Shown: in pieces, positions 6,599 to 58,079 of the stretch
Layout: every line of letters starts with the position of its first letter
Position numbering within the stretch: position 1 is the stretch's first letter
Virus record (IMG/VR): IMGVR_UViG_3300008267_013251
Location: 81,016-145,015 of that record
Reading direction: 5' to 3' (one strand)
Source: a virus
DNA length: 64,000 bases
The notes under the pieces: model-generated
The model's input: the letters and a program-made list of their open reading frames with translations, nothing else
Database searches by the model: none
What the model was told of the DNA's origin: nothing
Made by a program: the position numbers and the translations under genes

Positions 6599-7198
6599 TT
6601 ATTCAAATAGGAATGTCTCAGAGGCTAATGTCTCGTTAATTTCGTTGAGTGTATCAATACGCATTTCAATTTTCATGCCTAAAGTATAATACGGCGCAGC
6701 GTAGTATTCCATGCTCTTTTTAGCTTCCTCTATAGAAGTAAAATATACAATTGATTTTTTATCTTTAGGAATATCTAAGCTTGCGTTGTCAAGCTCTTTA
6801 TTGTTAGTAATATCAACTATTTTAAAATATTTTGGTAGCTGTCTTCTTTCAAGAAGCAAAGCAACCTGTTCGACAACAAGTTTAGAAATGAAATAATATT
6901 TTACATAGAAGTCATATTTGTTTTGATTATATGGCTTTTTAAAAAATGGATTTATCTCTTTAATGAAAGAATCAATCTCTCCCTCATCAATAAGCTCTTT
7001 TATTTCCTGTTCTTTTCCTGAAATAAATGATATGTCAAAATATGAGGAAAGCTTGTAGTTTGTAAGCAACCTAAAAATATTGAATATATCAATTTTATCT
7101 ATGTATGTATTTTTTTTAGACTTCGAAGTTTTTTTCTTACCTACAAAGTTTCTAAGAATATATTCAGATATACCATTAATAGCAACAACATCAATCAT
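6599..7198 (-). CDS. hypothetical protein
   Basis: 199-aa ORF coupled to neighbours. Confidence 0.65.
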   Translation of the reverse strand: MIDVVAINGISEYILRNFVGKKKTSKSKKNTYIDKIDIFNIFRLLTNYKLSSYFDISFISGKEQEIKELIDEGEIDSFIKEINPFFKKPYNQNKYDFYVKYYFISKLVVEQVALLLERRQLPKYFKIVDITNNKELDNASLDIPKDKKSIVYFTSIEEAKKSMEYYAAPYYTLGMKIEMRIDTLNEINETLASETFLFE

Positions 7199-46793: not shown

Positions 46794-47501
46794 TTAAGCG
46801 TGGTATTGACCGTCTTTAAAACTTCCACCTAAAGAATTACTAATCTTTTCAATTTGGTTTCTCAAATTCTCAAATTTCTTTTTGAAAGAACTAGCCTTTT
46901 TCTCGTTGAGGCCAGTTTTAGTATTCATTTCAACTTCAAGATTGTATAGGTCACGCTTGAGTTTTTCCAGTTTTGGATACGCTGGATGAGCAGCTAAACC
47001 CGCTGTCACCTTCACTTTATTTTCTTTATCAACAGCATCTGGACCAACTGTATCAGGGTAAATAGGATTGGGATTATTGGCTAATCCTACGGCTTTTTCG
47101 CCGTTGTCTAGTTTGCCAGCTTTTTCAAGTGATGTCTTAACTAAATCATTGAGAGGCTTGCCTCCATCAACTTGATATTGTCCAGCTTTTTTTTCTACTT
47201 TACCAGTTCCATCTTTTGCCTTCTTAGCTTTTTTCTTTGCTTTGGCTTCATTCAAAGCAGCTTCCATAAGCACAGTTGTCTCGTCGGGGAACATCTTGCC
47301 ACTTCTGGTAATAACATCAGTCCAATAACTGGCATCGTCAGAGCTTAGTGATTTTTCTTGGACAGCATAATTACCAAAGAAGTCACTCTTAGGAGTTTGA
47401 TCAACCTCTGTAGCCTTAAATATGCCTTTATTCTGGGCACTATCCCATAAATCACAAAGCCTGTTGAACTCATCTTTTTGTTGTTGCCATGAATCAGTCA
47501 T
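46794..47501 (-). CDS. hypothetical protein
   Basis: GGAG SD, 235 aa. Confidence 0.7.
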   Translation of the reverse strand: MTDSWQQQKDEFNRLCDLWDSAQNKGIFKATEVDQTPKSDFFGNYAVQEKSLSSDDASYWTDVITRSGKMFPDETTVLMEAALNEAKAKKKAKKAKDGTGKVEKKAGQYQVDGGKPLNDLVKTSLEKAGKLDNGEKAVGLANNPNPIYPDTVGPDAVDKENKVKVTAGLAAHPAYPKLEKLKRDLYNLEVEMNTKTGLNEKKASSFKKKFENLRNQIEKISNSLGGSFKDGQYHA

Positions 47502-47531
47502 GAATTATCTCCATTTAGACCTTATTATATA

Positions 47532-48098
47532 TCATGGTTTCAGCAATTTTTTGCATTCTTCAATTGTCAAACCCTTAAATTGCTTGTACCAACCGTCATG
47601 TTTGCCAACATATTTGTTGCGCCCTGCAATTATGAGTCGCAAAGCATTCCTCGTATCATGCAAATACTTGCATTTATTGATAATAGTAATATCGAAAGTA
47701 TCCAAACTATTGTAGGCTGCTGCCCTTACTAATAAAGTAAACAAACCGAACAAGCATTTGTCTCTCCAATAAGGAGACAAAACTACGAGCATGGCAGTTT
47801 TTTTAGCAGTTTTGTATATCTTGCTTTTTCTCTTAATGAAAAGTTTGGATTCAAGAGATTGAATAAAAACTTTTAACTTTTGAAACTTATATTTCTTATG
47901 GTTTATAAAAATATGATTAGGCTTGGGGTAATCTGCATGAAATATTTCTCTACAGTCATACCAACACGGTACACAAACTTTATTTCTGAACTCTTCTGCT
48001 ACCGAAAACGCTATATTGCAGCAATTGTATAAGATGGGTATTTCACAAATATCATCCCTCACAAATTGCATCAACACATTTTTCGTTATCTTCAGCAT
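47532..48098 (-). CDS. hypothetical protein
   Basis: 188-aa ORF. Confidence 0.6.
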   Translation of the reverse strand: MLKITKNVLMQFVRDDICEIPILYNCCNIAFSVAEEFRNKVCVPCWYDCREIFHADYPKPNHIFINHKKYKFQKLKVFIQSLESKLFIKRKSKIYKTAKKTAMLVVLSPYWRDKCLFGLFTLLVRAAAYNSLDTFDITIINKCKYLHDTRNALRLIIAGRNKYVGKHDGWYKQFKGLTIEECKKLLKP

Positions 48099-48549
48099 CT
48101 TTTATATATTCTATATTTTTTTTACTATTTATATCTGTTTTTTCAAAATACTGATCTAAGTTATTTATTTTCACTATTTCCCAATGCATATCATCCTTCG
48201 GCACATATTCTTCTTTTGTATAATAAAAAATTTCAAACAAATATTCATATGTCTTTGCTATAACCATAGGTTTCGTCATACCATTGTATAAGTCCATAAA
48301 TATTTTTCTAACTAATCTTATTGCTTCTTTTCGAGGAGCTTTCCCCAACTTTGTCATCAAGGTTACAGCTTTTTTTGGCCCTATGTTTTCTAAGAACAGA
48401 GCCTCAACTATTTGTTCCTTCAAATCTCCATCTCTAAGTTCCGCTATGGCTTTATAACATGCCATAACATCGCCTTTTTGAGGCCTATGAGTCAATACAT
48501 CCTTAAAGTATTCATGAAAATTTGAATCATCAATAACAAGTTCACTCAT
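48052..48549 (-). CDS. hypothetical protein
   Basis: Coupled to the dnaE C-half stop. Confidence 0.65.
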   Translation of the reverse strand: MSELVIDDSNFHEYFKDVLTHRPQKGDVMACYKAIAELRDGDLKEQIVEALFLENIGPKKAVTLMTKLGKAPRKEAIRLVRKIFMDLYNGMTKPMVIAKTYEYLFEIFYYTKEEYVPKDDMHWEIVKINNLDQYFEKTDINSKKNIEYIKDAEDNEKCVDAICEG

Positions 48550-51073
48550 CTTTTTTACTTTCTTCTATCAATACGAGTCGATAATCCATACTTTTTTCTT
48601 TTGGGAGTTCATACCTTTTATGCCTTGGAGGAGACTTAAAGGTATAAGTCGAAAACCCATTAGATGGTGGACAAACCTGTATACTAATTAAGTTGCCTTT
48701 TTTTAATTCTGATTTAAATCTTTGGTAATCATCATCCCAAATCGTTATCCTTCCCATCTCAAAATTATCATCCATAACAGACAAGCTAGCAAAAGAGCCT
48801 TTGCCACTTTTGAACTTTTTAATATTTACTTCGAGTATCTCACAAATTACTGTTGACCATAAAACGCCTGCTTCATCTTGTAGTTTGAGATTGTTAAAGT
48901 TTTTGTTCGGCTGATAACCTGCTGCATTTCTAATACGGTTATCCCATGGATAACCATAATATGTCTCCTGAGCCAGCCTACTATTATTTAGTAAAGGCAA
49001 AACCTTCGCATCGTCAATTTTTACTTCCTCGCTGACGAATGTTTCCAAAGTTGGCTTAACAGGAGCCTTATCAGCAAATCGTTTAAGTGCTGCTTCAGCT
49101 TTTTTCTTAGCACCTGCTAACAATGAAATATATTGATCTTTATTTTCAAAATCCTTTCTTTCGATATAATCAGATAATATCTGTATATTTTTGGGTGTCG
49201 CAAGCTTTATGACATGCAGTTGCTCTGGCAATGCTTCCTTGATGACTTCGGCAAGTTTAGTCAAAGAGGCTTCAAATCTTTTTTGTCTATCCTTCACTAT
49301 CTTTTGATAATCTGCAAATAATAACCAAAATTTATAGAGTTCAACCGGATTGTTTTCCTTGAAAACTCCTAAAGGGATCAAAGCCCTTAGAACAGTTGCC
49401 TCGGTTCCAAAACGGGAAAGAAAGTCTTCAAAGCCATCGTATGGCTGGAGTTCAACAATTCGCTTGGCTTTATCCTCACCTATACCTTTGATGTTAGAAA
49501 AACCTATGTAAATCTTACCATCAAATATGCTAAATGTTTCCTTAGACAAATTAATATCTAATGGACAAACTTCAACCCCATGATTAATTGCCTCGGAGAT
49601 ATAGTCCCTTAGCTTTTCGTCATCACTTTCACATTGTAGAGTTGCTGTGTAGAATTCTAAAGGATAATGTGCTTTTAAATACAACTGCCTAGCAGAAATA
49701 TATGAATAAGCTACGGAATGGCTTAGATTAAAACCGTATTCAGCGAAAGATTGTATCTGATCAAAAAGTTTTGTTACCTCTTCTTTAGTAGTTTCCAAAA
49801 CAAGCTGGCCATTCTCAATAAACTTGTCTTTATATTTCCCAAACGCTTCTATTTTCTTTTTAGAAATAGCTTTTATAACGACATAACAATCACGAAGAGG
49901 AATCTTGCCTACAGCAGCAAGAATTTTCATAACATCCTCTTGGAAAATCATAATGCCATAAGTTTTACCTAAAATTGGTTCTATAACAGGATGCAATTTA
50001 TATTCCTGTTTGCCACGCTTTCTGAGTGTGTATGTCTCATCCATTCCTTGATTCAAAGGGCCGGGACGATACAGAGCTACAAGGTTAACTAAATCATCAA
50101 AGCAATCCATTCCACATTTTCTAGCTAATTTTCTGATACCTTCAGAGTCATACTGGAAAACACATTTAAGATCACCAGCATTAGCCATTTCCATGCATTT
50201 TGCATCATTCAAGTAAGACAAATCACTCCAATCCCATTGACCTTCTAATGCAGAAATGTTTTTCAAACTGTGCCGTTGTTTTACCATCTTTACTGTTAAT
50301 GCAATTTGCCAAAGACTACTTACAACCAACAAGTCAAATTTGATCAAGCCAACTGGGCCAAGGTCTTGACCACTCAAGCCTTCAACCCACGCAGAAACAG
50401 CTTCTCCTTCGGAGCCTTTGACCAACGGCACAAATTTATCAATGGGTTGATTGCAGAGTATCAATCCACCAGCATGTTTTCCCATGCTTCTATTGCGATG
50501 TAATAATTTTTGAACTGCTGCTGCCACATCAGGATGCTTTTGACAATATGCATTCAATTCAGGATACAACTCCAAAGCTTTCTGATAAGTTAAAGCCTCC
50601 CCCTCATCATCTTTAAGTCGCAAATTTGTTGTGATTTGAAGAATTTCTGATCTGTCAAGCCCATGAACACGGGCCATATCAATAAAAGTGCTTTTGAGTC
50701 CAAAAGTACCATAGTTTCCAATATTGCATACTTTGTCTTCGCCAAAAGTTTGAGGAGCCCAAGTATTCTTCAGATAATCACGAACTATTGGCAAATAATC
50801 TACATCAACATCTGGATATTCCCCATTTTTTGTCGATGGTTCCTCATCAAGATTTACATAATCAACAATATCAAGAAGCTTACATATTAAAAGATTGTTT
50901 TCGTTATTTGGATATTTTTTACCTTCATAAAACATTTTGATAAAATATTCTTCTAGGTCTTGAACCTCAACCTCGATTAACTCCCATTTGAGTCTTTTTT
51001 CAAAATTCTTATGAAGACACAATTCAGGATAAAGATGCTTCCTTTCAAGAAGTAGGGATTTCAATTTTTCCAT
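48542..51073 (-). CDS. dnaE: DNA polymerase III alpha, C-terminal half (palm, fingers, HhH, OB)
   Basis: PDVDVD, HAGG, GLIKFDLL, ALYRPGP, YGFN.SHSVAY and IKGIG; no PHP domain and no GRGS. Confidence 0.95.
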   Translation of the reverse strand: MEKLKSLLLERKHLYPELCLHKNFEKRLKWELIEVEVQDLEEYFIKMFYEGKKYPNNENNLLICKLLDIVDYVNLDEEPSTKNGEYPDVDVDYLPIVRDYLKNTWAPQTFGEDKVCNIGNYGTFGLKSTFIDMARVHGLDRSEILQITTNLRLKDDEGEALTYQKALELYPELNAYCQKHPDVAAAVQKLLHRNRSMGKHAGGLILCNQPIDKFVPLVKGSEGEAVSAWVEGLSGQDLGPVGLIKFDLLVVSSLWQIALTVKMVKQRHSLKNISALEGQWDWSDLSYLNDAKCMEMANAGDLKCVFQYDSEGIRKLARKCGMDCFDDLVNLVALYRPGPLNQGMDETYTLRKRGKQEYKLHPVIEPILGKTYGIMIFQEDVMKILAAVGKIPLRDCYVVIKAISKKKIEAFGKYKDKFIENGQLVLETTKEEVTKLFDQIQSFAEYGFNLSHSVAYSYISARQLYLKAHYPLEFYTATLQCESDDEKLRDYISEAINHGVEVCPLDINLSKETFSIFDGKIYIGFSNIKGIGEDKAKRIVELQPYDGFEDFLSRFGTEATVLRALIPLGVFKENNPVELYKFWLLFADYQKIVKDRQKRFEASLTKLAEVIKEALPEQLHVIKLATPKNIQILSDYIERKDFENKDQYISLLAGAKKKAEAALKRFADKAPVKPTLETFVSEEVKIDDAKVLPLLNNSRLAQETYYGYPWDNRIRNAAGYQPNKNFNNLKLQDEAGVLWSTVICEILEVNIKKFKSGKGSFASLSVMDDNFEMGRITIWDDDYQRFKSELKKGNLISIQVCPPSNGFSTYTFKSPPRHKRYELPKEKSMDYRLVLIEESKKDE

Positions 51074-51124
51074 TGTGTCCTCAAAAACAAATTCACAATA
51101 ATAAATAGAATACGAGGTTTAATC

Positions 51125-51703
51125 ATGGCACTTACCAATTTTAGAGAATATCTGAACTCCAAAGGCAAAACAATAGAAAAAGCCGAAGATATTATGGATT
51201 TGCAAATGGATAAGTCACCAGATGCACCAGAAAAATATGCTACCCATGGGAAAAACTATGCGTTTTCGGCAGCATTAGATAGCAAGCCATTGCCGTACTC
51301 AGCCAAAACAATTGATGTAGCTCAAGGTAAGGAAGATCAAGCTGGTTTAGGTTTCTTTGGAACTCCCGGCATCGAGTACACAGACACCAGAACAAATGTT
51401 GTTAATTTTTCTGAATTGAAGGAACATTGTGGATGCGAAAGCAAAAAGGCACCATTTGTTGTTGCTTACTCATCAGGAGCATTCCATCCTGATCCAATTC
51501 AAGCAATCAAATATATTGTGTATCTGACCAATGAGAATGAAAATATTCTAAAAGCTTTGATGCACGAAGCAAGGAAAATGGGATGCCTTGAAAAGTATAC
51601 CGATTATCTAACAAGATTCCCAGAAGTATATCGAAGTCTTGGAAAGCGTTATGGCGGTGATGATGGGATTCATCACTTAGCTCATAAAATAAGTTCTATT
51701 TAA
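51125..51703 (+). CDS. hypothetical protein, probable late/virion protein
   Basis: ATAAATA and GAGG upstream; N-terminus MALTNFREYL. Confidence 0.65.
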   Translation: MALTNFREYLNSKGKTIEKAEDIMDLQMDKSPDAPEKYATHGKNYAFSAALDSKPLPYSAKTIDVAQGKEDQAGLGFFGTPGIEYTDTRTNVVNFSELKEHCGCESKKAPFVVAYSSGAFHPDPIQAIKYIVYLTNENENILKALMHEARKMGCLEKYTDYLTRFPEVYRSLGKRYGGDDGIHHLAHKISSI

Positions 51704-51965
51704 AATCATCTAAATCTATATCATCTTCGAATATTATCGGAGTATTTTCTCCAACATATGCGCCAGCTATGTTGAAATTAAAATACTCTATTGCATCCTC
51801 ATAATCCATATCATTACACAATTTTTGAAGTATCTTCTTCTTGCTGTAAACAACTGATAATTGATGAAACTTGGTCCCCGTCCCCATGATTGCATCATCG
51901 AAACCATCCATAAAAAGAACATTGCACCCGAATTCTTCACACATATTCGCAATTTTTTCTCGCAT
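51696..51965 (-). CDS. conserved small phage protein
   Basis: DGFDDAI.G...EDAIEYFNFNIAGAYVGENTP; GGAG SD. Confidence 0.75.
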   Translation of the reverse strand: MREKIANMCEEFGCNVLFMDGFDDAIMGTGTKFHQLSVVYSKKKILQKLCNDMDYEDAIEYFNFNIAGAYVGENTPIIFEDDIDLDDFK

Positions 51966-52034
51966 GTTTTGTCTCCTAAACTTAAATATAATAGATGAAG
52001 ATGAATGCAAGTCAACAGGGTGTTAAAATTTAAT

Positions 52035-52637
52035 ATGTATGAAATAGTAGTAGCCAGATTTGAAGAAGACTTGTCATGGCTTAATGGCATTAAACATAAA
52101 ATCAAAATTTATAATAAAGGTCAAAACAACATCAATCGAGATTTTATTCCTCTTGCAAATATTGGAAGAGAAGCGACCACAATTCTTTATCACATAATAA
52201 CTCAATATGACAACTTAAGTGAATACACTATTTTCTTACAGGGAAATCCATTTCAACACTATACAAAAACAAAAGAACTTTTACACGGCATACCAGAAAG
52301 CATAGAACCACTTTACAAATTCAGCGATGGCTGCTGGGCAATCGCAGATAAAATACTAAATGAAACTCAAGAGAAAATTAGTCCGATGCGAGTCTATCCA
52401 GCAGATTTTCACGACACATTTTTTAGAGTTCCAAAGAAAAATTTTCTATACGCTTCTGGAGCACAGTATATTGTTCATAAAAATAATATTCGAAACAAGC
52501 CAATCACATTCTATAAAAAAATCATGAGTTCATTTTCTTGGAAAGGACACGAACCATGGAGTATAGAAAGAGTTTGGCCTTCTATATTTGATAAAGAAAA
52601 CAAATATAAAATAAGAACAAAAGATATGTTTCTTTAA
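52035..52637 (+). CDS. DUF3431-like protein
   Basis: IVVARFEEDL.W, IYNKG, NIGREA, FLQGNPF.H, GAQY.V and ERVW. Confidence 0.8.
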   Translation: MYEIVVARFEEDLSWLNGIKHKIKIYNKGQNNINRDFIPLANIGREATTILYHIITQYDNLSEYTIFLQGNPFQHYTKTKELLHGIPESIEPLYKFSDGCWAIADKILNETQEKISPMRVYPADFHDTFFRVPKKNFLYASGAQYIVHKNNIRNKPITFYKKIMSSFSWKGHEPWSIERVWPSIFDKENKYKIRTKDMFL

Positions 52638-53476
52638 GACTGTTTTGTTCCATCATGCTCTCTGAACCATTTCGTAATAATTACCTTTTCACCACGCTCG
52701 ACAGGCATGCCCCAATGTTCTGTCCAAGGATTACCATCCCCATTTGGTAAAATGTTATTCCAGAATAAAGCGGTCCTTTTCTTGGGGGCAAAATCTATCC
52801 CGATCTTAGTAAACTTGGTATGTCCACCCGCCGTGACATCATTCAAATAAACCATAAATGTCCAAGTCCTTTGTCCCTTATCTAAATGAACTTGATTATA
52901 TGCAGAGTTTTTATCAAACCAATCATTATGTGGCTTGAACTCTTGTCCCACTTCATATAACTGTCCTTGCGGTTCTTCAGAATTCCCATAGGGAATTCTT
53001 AAAAAATCATGAACATATTTGTTCATTTCCATATTTTCTGGTGTTTCGTGCAATCTAAGATAAGAAGTTCTACTTGTTCTTACGGTGGCTTCTGCCTCTG
53101 GGTTAGTCACCAAAGACTTGGTCAAATTACCTTTGATAATTTGCACAAACCTATCACATTGCTCATCAGTAAAAAAGTCTTCGACTTCATAAAGCTCTAC
53201 ATAGTTATTATCTATTCTATGTGCTCTTGGGTTATCAGCTAAAGGCTTGTAAAGAGGGAAAATAATAGGCTTTTCATCATTATCCAAAATTTTTTGTGTT
53301 TGTCTTCTGATCAAAGTTTTAACATTGGAAGGCATGAAATTTAATTCTTTGGCTATTGCATCCCAACAGAAGCCATGATTCAGGAGAATCACGAATAGAT
53401 TCTCTTTATTCTTTTCTGCTTTCACATGATTCCAAATCCACCACTTCCAATCATCGCTAAATGTTTTAAGAAGCAT
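52634..53476 (-). CDS. prolyl 4-hydroxylase-like 2OG-Fe(II) oxygenase
   Basis: RTS, Y.VGQEFKPH.D, GQRTWT.MVYLN...GG.T.F, H...PV..GEK..ITKWFR. Confidence 0.88.
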   Translation of the reverse strand: MLLKTFSDDWKWWIWNHVKAEKNKENLFVILLNHGFCWDAIAKELNFMPSNVKTLIRRQTQKILDNDEKPIIFPLYKPLADNPRAHRIDNNYVELYEVEDFFTDEQCDRFVQIIKGNLTKSLVTNPEAEATVRTSRTSYLRLHETPENMEMNKYVHDFLRIPYGNSEEPQGQLYEVGQEFKPHNDWFDKNSAYNQVHLDKGQRTWTFMVYLNDVTAGGHTKFTKIGIDFAPKKRTALFWNNILPNGDGNPWTEHWGMPVERGEKVIITKWFREHDGTKQS

Positions 53477-53972
53477 TTGTAAATCTCCAATGATAAAATG
53501 ATTGTATTACCATTTGATGTTTTTCGCATTGCAGATCATCTCTCCAATGGTTCATCGTTGTTCCCAATATTAAAGCACCATCGCCAACTCTTGTCTCAAA
53601 TCCTTTGATGCCGTCTACAGTTTCAACATATAAAGGCCATGGCTTGTTGATATTACTGAATGTGCAAACAGTTAAAGTTATATCAAGACCTTCTCTATCT
53701 TTATGCTTTTTTAGCTTCGATCCATCATAATAAATTCTTGTATAACTGTTTTCTTCTTTGATGTTATTAAATCCAGTTGCCTGTTTAATTTGGGGAGTCA
53801 AATCATGCAAAAGCTTTTCATATAACGGAATCCTTGCTGTCCCATAACTGTTGCCATAATGTGAGTTATCGACCTCATGACTCAATCTATTCTCCATCAT
53901 CATACGGAGAGCAGCTTGATTCAATTCATCGCATTGTTTTTGATTTAAAAGCTTTTCAAAGAAAATATACAT
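53466..53972 (-). CDS. phage 2OG-Fe(II) oxygenase
   Basis: SYTRIY, LKKH.DR, WPL, GD, HWR and Q.FYHW. Confidence 0.8.
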   Translation of the reverse strand: MYIFFEKLLNQKQCDELNQAALRMMMENRLSHEVDNSHYGNSYGTARIPLYEKLLHDLTPQIKQATGFNNIKEENSYTRIYYDGSKLKKHKDREGLDITLTVCTFSNINKPWPLYVETVDGIKGFETRVGDGALILGTTMNHWRDDLQCEKHQMVIQSFYHWRFTNAS

Positions 53973-54010
53973 AATAGCCTACTTTTAAACTATTATAGTA
54001 TATTTTTATC

Positions 54011-55432
54011 CTAATTTGAAAATTTTAACTTAATTTGTTTTCCACCTCTAGCCTCGCTCAAAAATCTTGAGAAAAGCAAACCATGTCGTATCGGATCAAC
54101 ATCGGTGACACCCAATAAATAAAGAATCAAAGACCCACCACCAGAACCTCTTCCGGGGCCAACAGCCTCCCTTCCATCTCCCCAACCCAAAAGCTCAGGA
54201 CAAACTCTTCTGGCCTCATCGGTCATCATCTTCTGGACTAGAAAGTAACTAGCAAACCCCTTTCGTGTGATTATATCAAATTCTTCCGCAACTCGTTTGC
54301 CGTATTCCCCTTGTGGCTTGATGTTTCTAAACCGCAATCCATCTGCGACAGCCTGCGCTAGAGCTTTCTTTTCTTCCTCTTGTAGTGGAAATTTTATGCT
54401 TCTGTCTAGTTCAACGCCCTTGGCTTTTTGACAAATAGCAACTGTAGTGGCCTTGGCTTCTTCAAATATTTCGAGTGGTATGACATCACTATATTTTTTT
54501 TGCCACATCTCATTAAGCTCTTCTTCTGTTTTCATCCACAAATTACTGTCTTGGAGTTCAAAAAAATCTTGATTTTCATTTTCTTCAATCATCTTTTGTA
54601 TTTCTGGCAAAGTTCTTTTTGTCTGAATCATCAGCATCAATCTTTGATAATGACTATCTTCCTGTTTGCAATAATGGCAGTCGTTAGTAAGAATAATTGG
54701 AAGATTATACTTATCTTTCATTTTCAAAATGAAAACATCATATGGTTTTTGCTTTTTGAAATCCAACATCATAATTTCTAAGTAAAACTGACCTTTGAAC
54801 ATGTTGATATATCTTACTAAAACTTCTTCAGCTGCTTCCTCCCCTTTTTTATCGAATGTTCTGCCTATTTCACTTGCATAACAGCAAGATGTAAAAATCA
54901 ATCCTTCTTTATGTTTTTGAAGCATCTCATAGTTTACACGGGGTTTCGCATAGAAACCCTTCAGAAAACCATAAGATGATAATTGAACAAGATTGGAATA
55001 ACCTTGTTTAGATGTGGCAATCGCAAGTAAGTGACTGCCTTTTACTTTGAATTCTTCAAGCTCTTCAGGACCAAGTTGGTCCATGAATTTCTTTCTACTC
55101 TCTTCATCAGGAGTAGGCTCGGAGTGCATGCGGTTGACATATAACTCACAGGCAAAAATTGCACTAAGCTTATTTTTTCCGTGTTGTTCACAAATTTGTT
55201 CACAAGCTTTTACTTGTCTGGGAACAGCACCGAGCATGCCATGATCACTTATGCAGAGAAACTGACCATGGTGGTGCCAATGCTCTGCGTATTCTTCAAC
55301 TTGGCCAAATCCATCTAAAAGACTATAGTTTTTTGCGCCCCCGGCATTAAATTATGCCGGGGGCAGTATGTCTGTGTGAAGATGTAGGTGTTCAAAACCT
55401 ACTATCTTCACACTTGACCCTTGGTTGGACAT
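54011..55432 (-). CDS. dnaE: DNA polymerase III alpha, N-terminal half (PHP domain to GRGS/palm start), interrupted by a 42-nt stop-containing insert
   Basis: ATG 55432 (or GTG 55411) gives MSNQGSSVKIVGFEHLHLHTD-[insert]-YSLLDG...ISDHG...CELY...HLL...TSCC...NDCHY...GPGRGS...DP...LLFSRFL, all in one frame with a single TAA at 55354-55352. Confidence 0.9.
55328..55369 (-). other. 42-nt hairpin insertion with in-frame stop (candidate translational bypass element)
   Basis: ATACTGCCCCCGGCATAATTTAATGCCGGGGGCGCAAAAAAC between codons GAC and TAT; 11-bp stem, 6-nt loop. Confidence 0.9.
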
Positions 55433-56415
55433 GATTTTACCTTAAAACCTTTTGATTGAAGCCAGTTTTCAAAAGCACAGGCATCATAGTTGTCATTTTT
55501 AACACAGTTCTCAACAACTGTCAATGGCTGTAAATTTTCCAAACAATTAATTAATTTAATGTCTCTAATGCCATAGTCTAAAAATGCTTTAATAGGAAAA
55601 ATATGATCAAGGTGCCATTTTTTTCCTATTAATTTATGCCAGTTTTTGTGATTAAATATGTGTTCCCGTAGTTGCACAGCGGTATAGCCCAACAATTCTT
55701 TTGTTTTTTTGTTTTTATTTATTTTTAAATATCTTATGCAAATGTTAATCATCGATCTGCATTTCTGTCTAAACAAATCATTAGTCCTTTTCTTTTCACG
55801 ATCAGATATCCATTCATAATGATGAGAACCACTTCTTCCTAACAAAGAACAAGCAGGACACCTAGGAACTTTTTGGAAATTATTTAAAGTTTTTTTATGA
55901 TTCTGTCCGCATTTACAAATAAATTCTACTGGCAGTCTTGCTTTTTTATATAAGCCAATTAATTTGCATCCTTGATCTTTGAAAAATTTTGCAACTTGAT
56001 CTTGTGATAAAGTTTGCTTCTTTGAATTTTTTATGTTACCACATTTTTTGCATCTATTACCTTTTCTAAAACTATCAAATACTATTTTAGATTTATTGCC
56101 ACACTCACAAATATAATCTAATTTAGCTCTGGCATTTATGTAATTTTCACTTAGAAGATAACAGTTCCTATCTTCAAAAAATTTTTTGACATAGTCATAT
56201 TTAAGTTTGAATTTATTTTTTAAACAATTTTTACATCTGCCTCCTTGCATAAAATTACTTAGTTTTATATAAGAAATATTTCTGCAAACACAAATATATT
56301 TTAATTTATTTTTTGCATTACAATACCTGTCCAATAATTTGCACCCAGCATCTTCAAAAACTTTGACAACAAAATCTTGATCATATTTTTTACCTTGCGC
56401 CACAACCCACCTCAA
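55408..56415 (-). CDS. free-standing HNH-type (putative homing) endonuclease with three Zn-finger repeats
   Basis: Three F...(G/N)C.L...Y..A.....IC.C....RC..C repeats plus WHLDHIFP...NLQPL...EN..K; start may be GTG 56403. Confidence 0.8.
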   Translation of the reverse strand: MRWVVAQGKKYDQDFVVKVFEDAGCKLLDRYCNAKNKLKYICVCRNISYIKLSNFMQGGRCKNCLKNKFKLKYDYVKKFFEDRNCYLLSENYINARAKLDYICECGNKSKIVFDSFRKGNRCKKCGNIKNSKKQTLSQDQVAKFFKDQGCKLIGLYKKARLPVEFICKCGQNHKKTLNNFQKVPRCPACSLLGRSGSHHYEWISDREKKRTNDLFRQKCRSMINICIRYLKINKNKKTKELLGYTAVQLREHIFNHKNWHKLIGKKWHLDHIFPIKAFLDYGIRDIKLINCLENLQPLTVVENCVKNDNYDACAFENWLQSKGFKVKSCPTKGQV

Positions 56416-56468
56416 ATAGATTAGCTTTTCATAATCTATCTAGTGAGCAGTAGTAAAATTTTAATTTA

Positions 56469-58079
56469 TCAACTTCTTGTCAAACCGAATTCCCTTTTAT
56501 ACTGTTCTCTTGTCAATTGAATTACATTTGACCCGTCATTCTCATCGCAATAAAACATGAGTTCTTCTTGGTTTTCATCTTTGGTGACCAGAAGAACTGA
56601 TTTGCCAGAAACAGCATTTAATGATTTCAAAGTTTCATCAAGGTACGGCATATACAAAGTTCTGCCTTCCCATTGATGCTCTAAAAGCATTATGTTCCTA
56701 CCAAGATGATTGTGGTCGGTCATCCTAATATCTGGTAAACCTCTGTTGGAATATCTTTGAATGAGCTTTTTCTTAATTTTCTTGGCATCCTTTGATTCAA
56801 TTACTACTTCACCATTAGGATACTTTTTCCATTCAAAGAACTGATACTTTTCGCAAAAATCCTGAGTAAAGAATTCATTGATCAAATTGACATCATCATA
56901 TATCTTTACAACTTCAAAAACTTTATTTTTACCCTCGCCAAGCTTCAAATCCCAGTTTTCTTTTTCTTTGAAACTAGCACAATTGTCGTAATCAGAACCA
57001 AACCTTCCTTTATCCCATCTTTCCTCAATATCTATCAACAAATTAAACCCAAGCTTATATGGGTTCATACTGTACTTACCACCAAGAACACCAGCCTTAT
57101 GAATCGAATACTCTACAATTCCTTCATCATGACTCTTTTGACCCAAAGCACAAAGCCCTTGTTTGGCTATCAAATGGTAGTCAACATAGCTGGCAAATCC
57201 TTCATTCGCCATTTTTGTCATGCCTTGTGGAGCAAAATAGTGTGCTTCGTCATAAAGCATACTCATGATGTCTGATTGCCAAGGCTTGAGATTGCAGTTA
57301 TCTTTTATCCATCCATAAATATCTCTTTCTGGAGACCGGGGTATTCCCAAATCTTCAATTTTTTCTTCTCTTTCAATACGATACTTCTCTGACTTAATAT
57401 ATTCTTTTGTATTGATCCAATCTTCCATATAATTTCTATCTTTGTCTATTTTAATCCTTTTTGGATAACGATATTTTCTTTCATCTCTAACAATAGGATT
57501 TTTTACTTGTCTAGTTTCCCAAGCTTTGGATGGATCAATCAAAGTTTCGATTCTTAATAAATTATCAATAAATTCAGTTACTTTTTCTTTCCCCCACCTT
57601 GCCATATACTTTCTGATTCTGCTGCCATGGTTAGCTAGCTCATTAATCATATTCTGGGATGTGTGTTTGAAATAGTGGTTATTCTTGAAAAAGTGGTTGT
57701 GCCCAGTAGCATGAGCAATAACAGTAACATTATCAAGAAGGGTATTGCTATTAAGGCAATAAATGTAGCAAGGATTTGTATTGAGAACCATTTCATAAAT
57801 GCGATGCATTCCATACATGTAACCTCGTTGCAGTTCTTCGTACTCCATACCCCAACGCCAATGGGGATATCTTACTGGAAACCCTCCATAAGCTGCAACT
57901 TCGGAAATTTCGTCATAGGTAAGCATTTGAACCACGGTGGGATAGAAATCCAATCCGAAGTCTGTGCATGCCTTTAAAATATCTGGAATTAAAACCTTCA
58001 ATTCATGTGGTATAGAAACACCGGGAGTGGTAGCACTCCCTTGCAGAATTGAAGAGCCATACATGAATTTGTCAGTCAT
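56469..58079 (-). CDS. spoVR: SpoVR/YcgB family protein
   Basis: GFPVRYPHWRWG.EY, IYEMV.N..P, HA.GHNHFFKNN, TKMANEGFASY and NPYKLG. Confidence 0.95.
   Translation of the reverse strand: MTDKFMYGSSILQGSATTPGVSIPHELKVLIPDILKACTDFGLDFYPTVVQMLTYDEISEVAAYGGFPVRYPHWRWGMEYEELQRGYMYGMHRIYEMVLNTNPCYIYCLNSNTLLDNVTVIAHATGHNHFFKNNHYFKHTSQNMINELANHGSRIRKYMARWGKEKVTEFIDNLLRIETLIDPSKAWETRQVKNPIVRDERKYRYPKRIKIDKDRNYMEDWINTKEYIKSEKYRIEREEKIEDLGIPRSPERDIYGWIKDNCNLKPWQSDIMSMLYDEAHYFAPQGMTKMANEGFASYVDYHLIAKQGLCALGQKSHDEGIVEYSIHKAGVLGGKYSMNPYKLGFNLLIDIEERWDKGRFGSDYDNCASFKEKENWDLKLGEGKNKVFEVVKIYDDVNLINEFFTQDFCEKYQFFEWKKYPNGEVVIESKDAKKIKKKLIQRYSNRGLPDIRMTDHNHLGRNIMLLEHQWEGRTLYMPYLDETLKSLNAVSGKSVLLVTKDENQEELMFYCDENDGSNVIQLTREQYKREFGLTRS

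Follow-up and report, generated by a model that had tools for sequence, protein, structure and literature searches.

A DnaE polymerase encoded as two genes, with a palm module on each, in a clade of huge phages

Replicative polymerases of the C family are textbook cases of single-chain catalytic subunits. The DNA studied here, referred to as the window, is a stretch of 64,000 nucleotides (positions 81,016 to 145,015 of IMG/VR record IMGVR_UViG_3300008267_013251) that makes up the final 64 kb of a 145-kb viral record. CheckV puts the completeness of this record at about 33%, and it therefore belongs to a huge phage. In the window, dnaE, the gene for DNA polymerase III (Pol III) alpha, is encoded as two minus-strand genes, an N-half at 55432-54011 and a C-half at 51073-48542. 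They are separated by 2938 bp (54011-51073) holding five open reading frames (ORFs), two of which lie on the opposite strand. The catalytic subunit is not a single polypeptide here, being divided over two ORFs with opposite-strand genes between them, and because of such an intervening gene the halves must come from separate transcripts. The C-half has its own ribosome-binding site (GAGGA) and stands 51 bp from the divergent gene next to it. Promoter and terminator scans gave signal no higher than the shuffled expectation, which leaves transcription units readable from gene orientation only. A first-pass annotation, made from the sequence, had described a dnaE split into two genes 2.9 kb and five ORFs apart with the break in the palm, and both the ORFs and the Pfam matches agree with it. 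The features that matter most are as follows.

54011..55432, minus strand: dnaE N-half, PHP domain and N-terminal palm subdomain; ATG at 55432, TAA at 55354-55352; listed as an ORF of 408 amino acids (aa) at 55237-54011
48542..51073, minus strand: dnaE C-half, 843 aa; GS-less palm copy, DxD strand, thumb, fingers, HhH, OB
54143..54154, minus strand: GRGS nucleotide-binding motif, G362-S365; R363, G364 and S365 invariant in 90 sequences
50798..50815, minus strand: catalytic strand P-D-V-D-V-D, P87-D92; P87, D88, D90 and D92 invariant
54014..54373, minus strand: N-half tail (residues 289-408), first copy of the palm module, with GRGS, R391 and R397
54014..54040, minus strand: conserved short C-terminal tail after RGG (residues 400-408)
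50816..51073, minus strand: C-half head (residues 1-86), second, GS-less copy of the palm module
50894-50908, minus strand: Asn-rich motif N56-N60, in the place of GRGS in the C-half head

The two products together account for a complete DnaE. The N-half matches the PHP domain (PF02811, E 1.6e-20) and positions 3-98 of the DNA_pol3_alpha profile; the C-half continues with positions 98-259 of the same profile, followed by DNA_pol3_finger (PF17657, 1e-36) and HHH_6 (PF14579, 1.2e-15), and its residues 718-843 match OB folds structurally (Z 9-10). The cut therefore sits at DNA_pol3_alpha profile position 98, with no profile position absent or doubled according to Pfam. It falls inside the palm, between the GS motif and the DxD strand, where R397 of the N-half and D88 of the C-half correspond to residues 396 and 401 of E. 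coli alpha.

The residues that define the active site are conserved in a complementary manner. R363, G364, S365, R391 and R397 of the N-half, equivalent to E. coli R362, G363, S364, R390 and R396, are invariant in 90 sequences, and D88, D90, K245 and D247 of the C-half, equivalent to E. coli D401, D403, K553 and D555, are invariant in 79 (the equivalences were checked on enterobacterial DnaE). The Pol-beta-like palm set of GS motif, DxD motif and third carboxylate is thus complete but spread over two chains, and the placement of the GS and arginine residues on one chain and the catalytic aspartates on the other, proposed for this phage, holds with full invariance across 79-90 relatives. Residues 351-399 form the best-conserved block of the N-half, with a majority-residue frequency of 0.84, and the PHP residues H69, C118, C119, D186 and H188 are likewise invariant in the 90 N-half sequences. 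Inteins in relatives occupy three fixed sites, GRG/S and TND/C (the latter in the PHP domain) of N-halves and GFN/S in the fingers of C-halves; such insertion sites are the usual signature of positions unable to vary. Intein-bearing relatives are P0307, P0190, P0210, P0216, P0242 and P0251, and P0003, P0007 and others. The SpoVR protein of a related locus, L009, also bears an intein, with a LAGLIDADG domain.

The split is old and conserved, and across a large clade of huge phages it is the norm. Half-length relatives were drawn from JGI, ENA, NCBI and Logan assemblies. Relatives of the C-half fall into more than 100 protein clusters of about 820-920 aa, with 45-100% identity and 96-100% query coverage; N-half-length relatives number 882 proteins at E <=1e-20, and the best 120 of these 882 are 59-94% identical. 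A related-locus search of viral contigs with the C-half as query returned no relative. The two-gene layout is found in 7/7 fetched loci, with gaps of 1.5 kb (L007), 3.3 kb (L005), 3.7 kb (L011), 3.9 kb (a 670-kb contig), 4.2 kb (L013), 4.9 kb (L009) and more than 10 kb (L010). Longer relatives of the N-half at >=54% identity are all N-halves with inteins. True fused DnaE proteins first appear at <=53% identity to the N-half; they have 1176-1194 aa with finger and HhH domains and lie on contigs of 587-623 kb, one of them being the intact 1179-aa DnaE of GenBank entry LR756511.1. In a tree of the C-part, rooted on Salmonella and Moorella-phage DnaE, the fused forms make one clade (support 99) and 49 of the 50 split forms another (97), for which one state change is enough; the fused forms also make one clade (100) in the tree of the N-part. 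A survey of related phages for the same split point, which the first-pass annotation had suggested, thus finds it shared by hundreds of uncultured relatives. To regard the split as an oddity of this one phage is wrong, with a large clade of over 100 clusters per half sharing it.

The pieces do more than divide the enzyme, as a segment of the palm is present on both of them. By tblastn, the N-half tail and the C-half head both align to one stretch of the intact LR756511.1 DnaE. In AlphaFold 2 (AF2) models, the N-half (predicted local distance difference test score, pLDDT, 82.6) superposes on residues 46-397 of E. coli alpha with a Z of 20.3, and the C-half (pLDDT 86.2) superposes from its residue 1 on residues 289-910 with a Z of 21.7, while further C-half superpositions also start in collinear fashion (residue 19 on 316, 30 on 327, 34 on 331 and 88 on 403). 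Since the models of head and tail both cover E. coli residues about 289-397, some 110 canonical palm residues are represented twice. The resemblance of head and tail is distant: pairwise BLASTP finds nothing significant (E 0.83), and a Pfam search with the 91-aa head alone finds nothing even at E 10. Profile comparison of 116 heads with 116 tails by hhalign gives a probability of 82% (P 1.1e-5) over 41 columns that cover the first two helices. A hidden Markov model (HMM) of the head matches 12/12 fused DnaEs and most N-halves at the collinear position (E 1e-4 to 1e-6), and also Moorella-phage and Salmonella DnaE at that position. The early observation that the start of the C-half resembles the N-half tail yet lacks GRGS is hence confirmed by profile methods and AF2 superposition, though not by pairwise BLASTP.

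The two copies differ where catalysis is concerned. Compared with the intact enzyme, the head has lost about 15-18 residues at the strand and the GS loop and carries an Asn-rich turn instead; both arginines are missing as well, and its model is helical, with no strand at the place of the GS loop. The description of the junction as duplicated and degenerate stands in one part, as the module is present twice, and fails in the other, as the head is not decaying: its majority-residue frequency of 0.60 is comparable to that of the C-terminal domains, and E31, N57, N60 and L67 are invariant. A phmmer search with the head against 1.84 billion representatives recovered 37 proteins, with the head N-terminal in all of them and no internal match within any fused DnaE. 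On the N-half, the invariant RGG is followed by a short, conserved tail located where the DxD strand would start. These residues, 400-408, may be either a strand used in docking or a DxD strand in decayed form; MAFFT does not align them to the DxD strand. Close to the junction, only two regions of the monomer models are poorly predicted, residues 392-408 of the N-half (its tail) and residues 82-93 of the C-half (the DxD strand); pLDDT is below 50 at N-half residues 400-408 and at the C-half catalytic strand. Such a pattern would be expected if each region needed the other chain.

The genes between the halves bear on how this arrangement arose. They are listed below.

53466..53972, minus strand: gap ORF 1, 168 aa, phrog_2954
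52634..53476, minus strand: gap ORF 2, 280 aa, 2-oxoglutarate (2OG)-Fe(II) oxygenase
52005..52637, plus strand: gap ORF 3, 210 aa, DUF3431; inverted here, co-oriented with dnaE in L011 and L013
51696..52010, minus strand: gap ORF 4, 104 aa, phrog_13182, no known function
51125..51703, plus strand: gap ORF 5 (X), 192 aa, divergent neighbour of the C-half

X belongs to a family of 170-240 aa proteins with an invariant HPDPIQAIKY motif, always encoded divergently from the C-half, and the X of the window is homologous to the X upstream of the intact dnaE in LR756511.1 (hhalign 95.9%, E 6e-9). In the fused clade, the gene order is PrkA, DUF444, SpoVR, one ORF, reverse-strand X, AAA ATPase, small membrane protein, YAcAr and dnaE; in the split clade it is PrkA, DUF444, SpoVR, dnaE-N, variable cargo, reverse-strand X and dnaE-C, with AAA and YAcAr additionally between X and dnaE-C in deep split lineages. 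The C-half thus sits where dnaE stood in the ancestor, with the N-half on the upstream side of the original neighbours. The other gap genes (2OG-Fe(II) oxygenase, DUF3431, phrog_2954 and phrog_13182) turn over among close relatives. To treat all gap genes as inserted cargo is accordingly wrong in part, X being an ancestral neighbour. The gap as such is a hot spot of cargo turnover, with 2OG-Fe(II) oxygenases, DUF3431 and an HPAT-like gene. No endonuclease family was recorded among the gap genes of the window, L005, L007, L009, L011, L013 and the 670-kb contig.

Judging from gene order and sequence, the layout most likely arose once, when the 5' part of dnaE was duplicated a few kilobases upstream and complementary parts were then lost. 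A tandem duplication reaching from upstream of X to just beyond the DxD codons would yield both the gene order and the double module; the PHP part would then have been lost from the downstream copy. Simple insertion of a cassette between the halves would not produce the observed gene order and double module. The duplication followed by reciprocal loss that had been proposed for this locus is consequently favoured by synteny over cassette insertion.

The N-half gene carries a further peculiarity near its start, where the sequence that encodes PHP motif I is interrupted.

55328..55369, minus strand: in-frame insert of 42 nt within PHP motif I; it contains a TAA and, at 55337-55364, an 11-bp GC stem

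The N-half frame opens at ATG 55432 and runs through HLHLH-T-D, then the insert, then Y-S-L-L-D-G, with PHP motif I upstream of the in-frame stop. Because the frame starts at ATG 55432 and its TAA lies in the hairpin, the start at 55237 given for the 408-aa ORF is an artefact of gene calling. The insert is the only GC-rich hairpin in the window. Homologous inserts of 39 nt (L011 and L012), 42 nt (L013) and 48 nt (L005) contain TAA or TGA, and their stems covary; they lie at about 5290-5340 in L005 and upstream of 6001 in L011, L012 and L013. L007 has no such insert, nor does a cluster with 94% identity to the N-half. Bypass of the T4 gene 60 type, considered for the hairpin insert alone, calls for matched take-off and landing codons, a stop beside the take-off codon and a stem-loop; the insert holds a stem-loop and a stop, and the codon before it is GAC and that before the resumed motif AAC or GAA in 4/5 loci, so that the codon pairs there are only near-cognate. 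A second class of interruption (L009 at about 2150-2170, L018 and L019 at about 6990-7010) is an insert of 7-8 nt in which a stop stands between a His codon and a second, His-like codon. These are exact His-His pairs, with net frame changes of +2, +1 and +1, and a short hop would yield precisely the canonical motif. Moreover, a long stem pairs the start-codon region with the HLHLH codons (9 bp in the version of the window), and in about half of the 120 N-half clusters listed the start is called inside or after the motif. Recoding at PHP motif I is thus plausible and appears widespread. Were it to fail, no N-half, and with it no GRGS, could be made from ATG 55432, and this is the sole sense in which the insert could gate the replicase, as had been suggested. 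A free-standing HNH endonuclease gene (phrog_559, 55408-56415, minus strand) lies between SpoVR and the start of dnaE-N. It is missing at that place in L005, L011, L012 and L013; as these other insert-bearing loci do without it, the HNH gene is not linked to the insert, and it is a recent arrival not co-inherited with the hairpin.

What do the two pieces form? We consider it probable that they make up an obligate two-chain replicative polymerase of the C family, with a composite active site and held together non-covalently. Chain 1, the N-half, would contribute the PHP exonuclease or proofreading domain, the strand-GRGS-helix element with the two arginines by which the incoming deoxynucleoside triphosphate is held; chain 2, the C-half, would contribute a helical GS-less copy of the subdomain, the DxD strand, the K/D strand, thumb, fingers, HhH and OB. 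Most likely, the DxD strand of chain 2, which would otherwise stand without support, pairs with the GRGS strand of chain 1, and one Pol-beta-like active site results; the head probably offers the N-half tail a scaffold or a docking partner. The split DnaE is apparently the main replicase of the phage. Several points weigh against such a composite enzyme. Binding of the two chains, and with it their geometry, is inferred. In the C-half model, the head is confidently placed and occupies the site that the N-half tail would require, so that either the head would have to move or the geometry would be non-canonical. The N-half frame of this phage contains an in-frame stop, and the full N-half may not be made here. 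In the N-part tree the split rows require two changes, with a single split clade not rejected (approximately unbiased test, p 0.41). Finally, the invariant N57 and N60 could form a substitute phosphate-binding turn.

The last point leads to the strongest alternative, which we nonetheless regard as unlikely: the C-half may be a self-sufficient core in which the Asn-rich turn replaces GS, and the N-half a PHP proofreading subunit whose palm fragment serves docking only. Besides the two asparagines, the confident folding of the head in the canonical place fits this explanation, as does a PHP-less Pol III alpha-like protein of 571 aa (L002), encoded in this genome, that starts at the same boundary. 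That protein, however, retains its own RGS motif, whereas the C-half lacks the strand, the GS loop and both arginines, and in the monomer model nothing supports its DxD strand. A mere docking module, moreover, would not keep R363, G364, S365, R391 and R397 invariant or be the best-conserved block of the N-half. The 571-aa gene itself lies outside the window, at G000:C1:31890-33605 (L002 1501-3216), and encodes palm and finger with RGS and DxD intact; a paralogue of this type was not found in LR756511.1, the 595-kb phage with a fused dnaE.

An elaboration of the two-chain polymerase, which we hold to be doubtful, would give the head a regulatory role. In it, the head would be a placeholder pseudo-subdomain that keeps the core folded but dead, the N-half would supply GRGS in trans, and heterodimerisation would switch on activity, with the N-half supply throttled by the recoding element in PHP motif I, either the stop-containing hairpin or the short hop site.

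Joining of the products by a trans-splicing intein or an intron is highly improbable. Inteins are frequent in this gene family among relatives (GRG/S, TND/C and GFN/S), and the cyanobacterial DnaE offers a precedent for joining by a split intein. At this locus, however, no Hint or intein family of Pfam matches either end of the break, only nine residues follow the RGG of the N-half, and a permissive Rfam scan of 47500-56500 found no family and no intron; the head is a helical palm copy and not an intein C-fragment, and opposite-strand genes stand between the halves. The break is thus intein-less, as first described, and splicing of RNA or protein, named there as a possible objection, finds no footing. 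A broken or decaying gene or an assembly error, with another polymerase replicating the phage, could draw on the in-frame stop in the N-half, the second Pol III alpha-like gene and a record only about 33% complete, but deserves hardly any credence, because the same split with conserved ends recurs in hundreds of independent assemblies at 45-100% identity (which also answers the concern about misassembly), the catalytic residues are invariant, and head and tail are conserved.

Among published systems, the nearest is the minimal Pol III alpha of T4-like group 2.2 jumbo phages, which is split into an NTP-binding and a Mg/DNA-binding protein (Iyer et al. 2021, Viruses 13:63, PMC7824862); it is intein-less and predicted to reassemble (PMC7824862). 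Both systems break at the same boundary between the NTP-binding and Mg-binding subdomains. That protein, however, has no PHP or other domains, stands beside a family B replicase, and has its genes far apart with no duplicated overlap reported, whereas the case described here is a full-length DnaE from PHP to OB with the junction module kept on both pieces. In single-chain DnaE enzymes (E. coli 2HNH, T. aquaticus 2HPI and 3E0D, M. tuberculosis 5LEW, and LR756511.1), all domains and catalytic residues are collinear. The halves have 41-49% identity to the intact LR756511.1 enzyme and structural Z values of 20-22 and differ in being cut between R396 and D401 (E. coli numbering) and in having an extra GS-less copy of about 289-397.

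Other split replication genes are known in T4-like phages, among them the family B polymerase gp43A/43B of Aeromonas phages 25 and 44RR, nrdA split by mobE in Aeh1, and topoisomerase genes 39/60 (Edgell et al. 2010, PMC2988022; Crona et al. 2011, PMC3045599); for gp43A and gp43B and for the NrdA pieces, activity was shown without splicing (PMC2988022, PMC3045599). They, too, divide an essential replication enzyme in a critical region, but those splits are young and specific to their lineages, and they go together with a homing endonuclease or an untranslated insert, whereas this one is ancient, clade-wide and has a duplicated junction, with no endonuclease in the gap of seven loci. The family B polymerase of PhiKZ, whose fragments DNAP-N and DNAP-C associate stably at a ratio of 1:1 (Basu et al. 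2026 preprint, PMC13648687), is likewise a jumbo-phage replicase in two fragments, although of another family and fold. In cyanobacteria, the DnaE halves are joined by a split intein (PMC3919608); Ssp and Npu DnaE share with the present case a dnaE in two genes, but they are covalently joined and cut at another site, and no intein parts occur here. Searches of a library of papers turned up no account of a full-length split DnaE from huge or jumbo phages, nor of one cut in the palm whose module is doubled and degenerate in a complementary way.

These phages thus form a clade that divides the active site itself over two proteins, with a complementary half-dead copy of a module on each, and they offer a natural case in which the gene of an essential enzyme underwent fission through duplication and reciprocal degeneration. 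They also open a route to asking how a Pol-beta-like active site assembles in trans. For annotation, they carry a warning, as it is routine for the halves to be labelled truncated genes or mere 'DNA polymerase III alpha' fragments. If recoding gated the supply of the N-half, phage replication would have a new point of control; and if, in addition, the head were a placeholder in the sense set out above, assembly of the replicase would be a translationally gated step of huge-phage infection.

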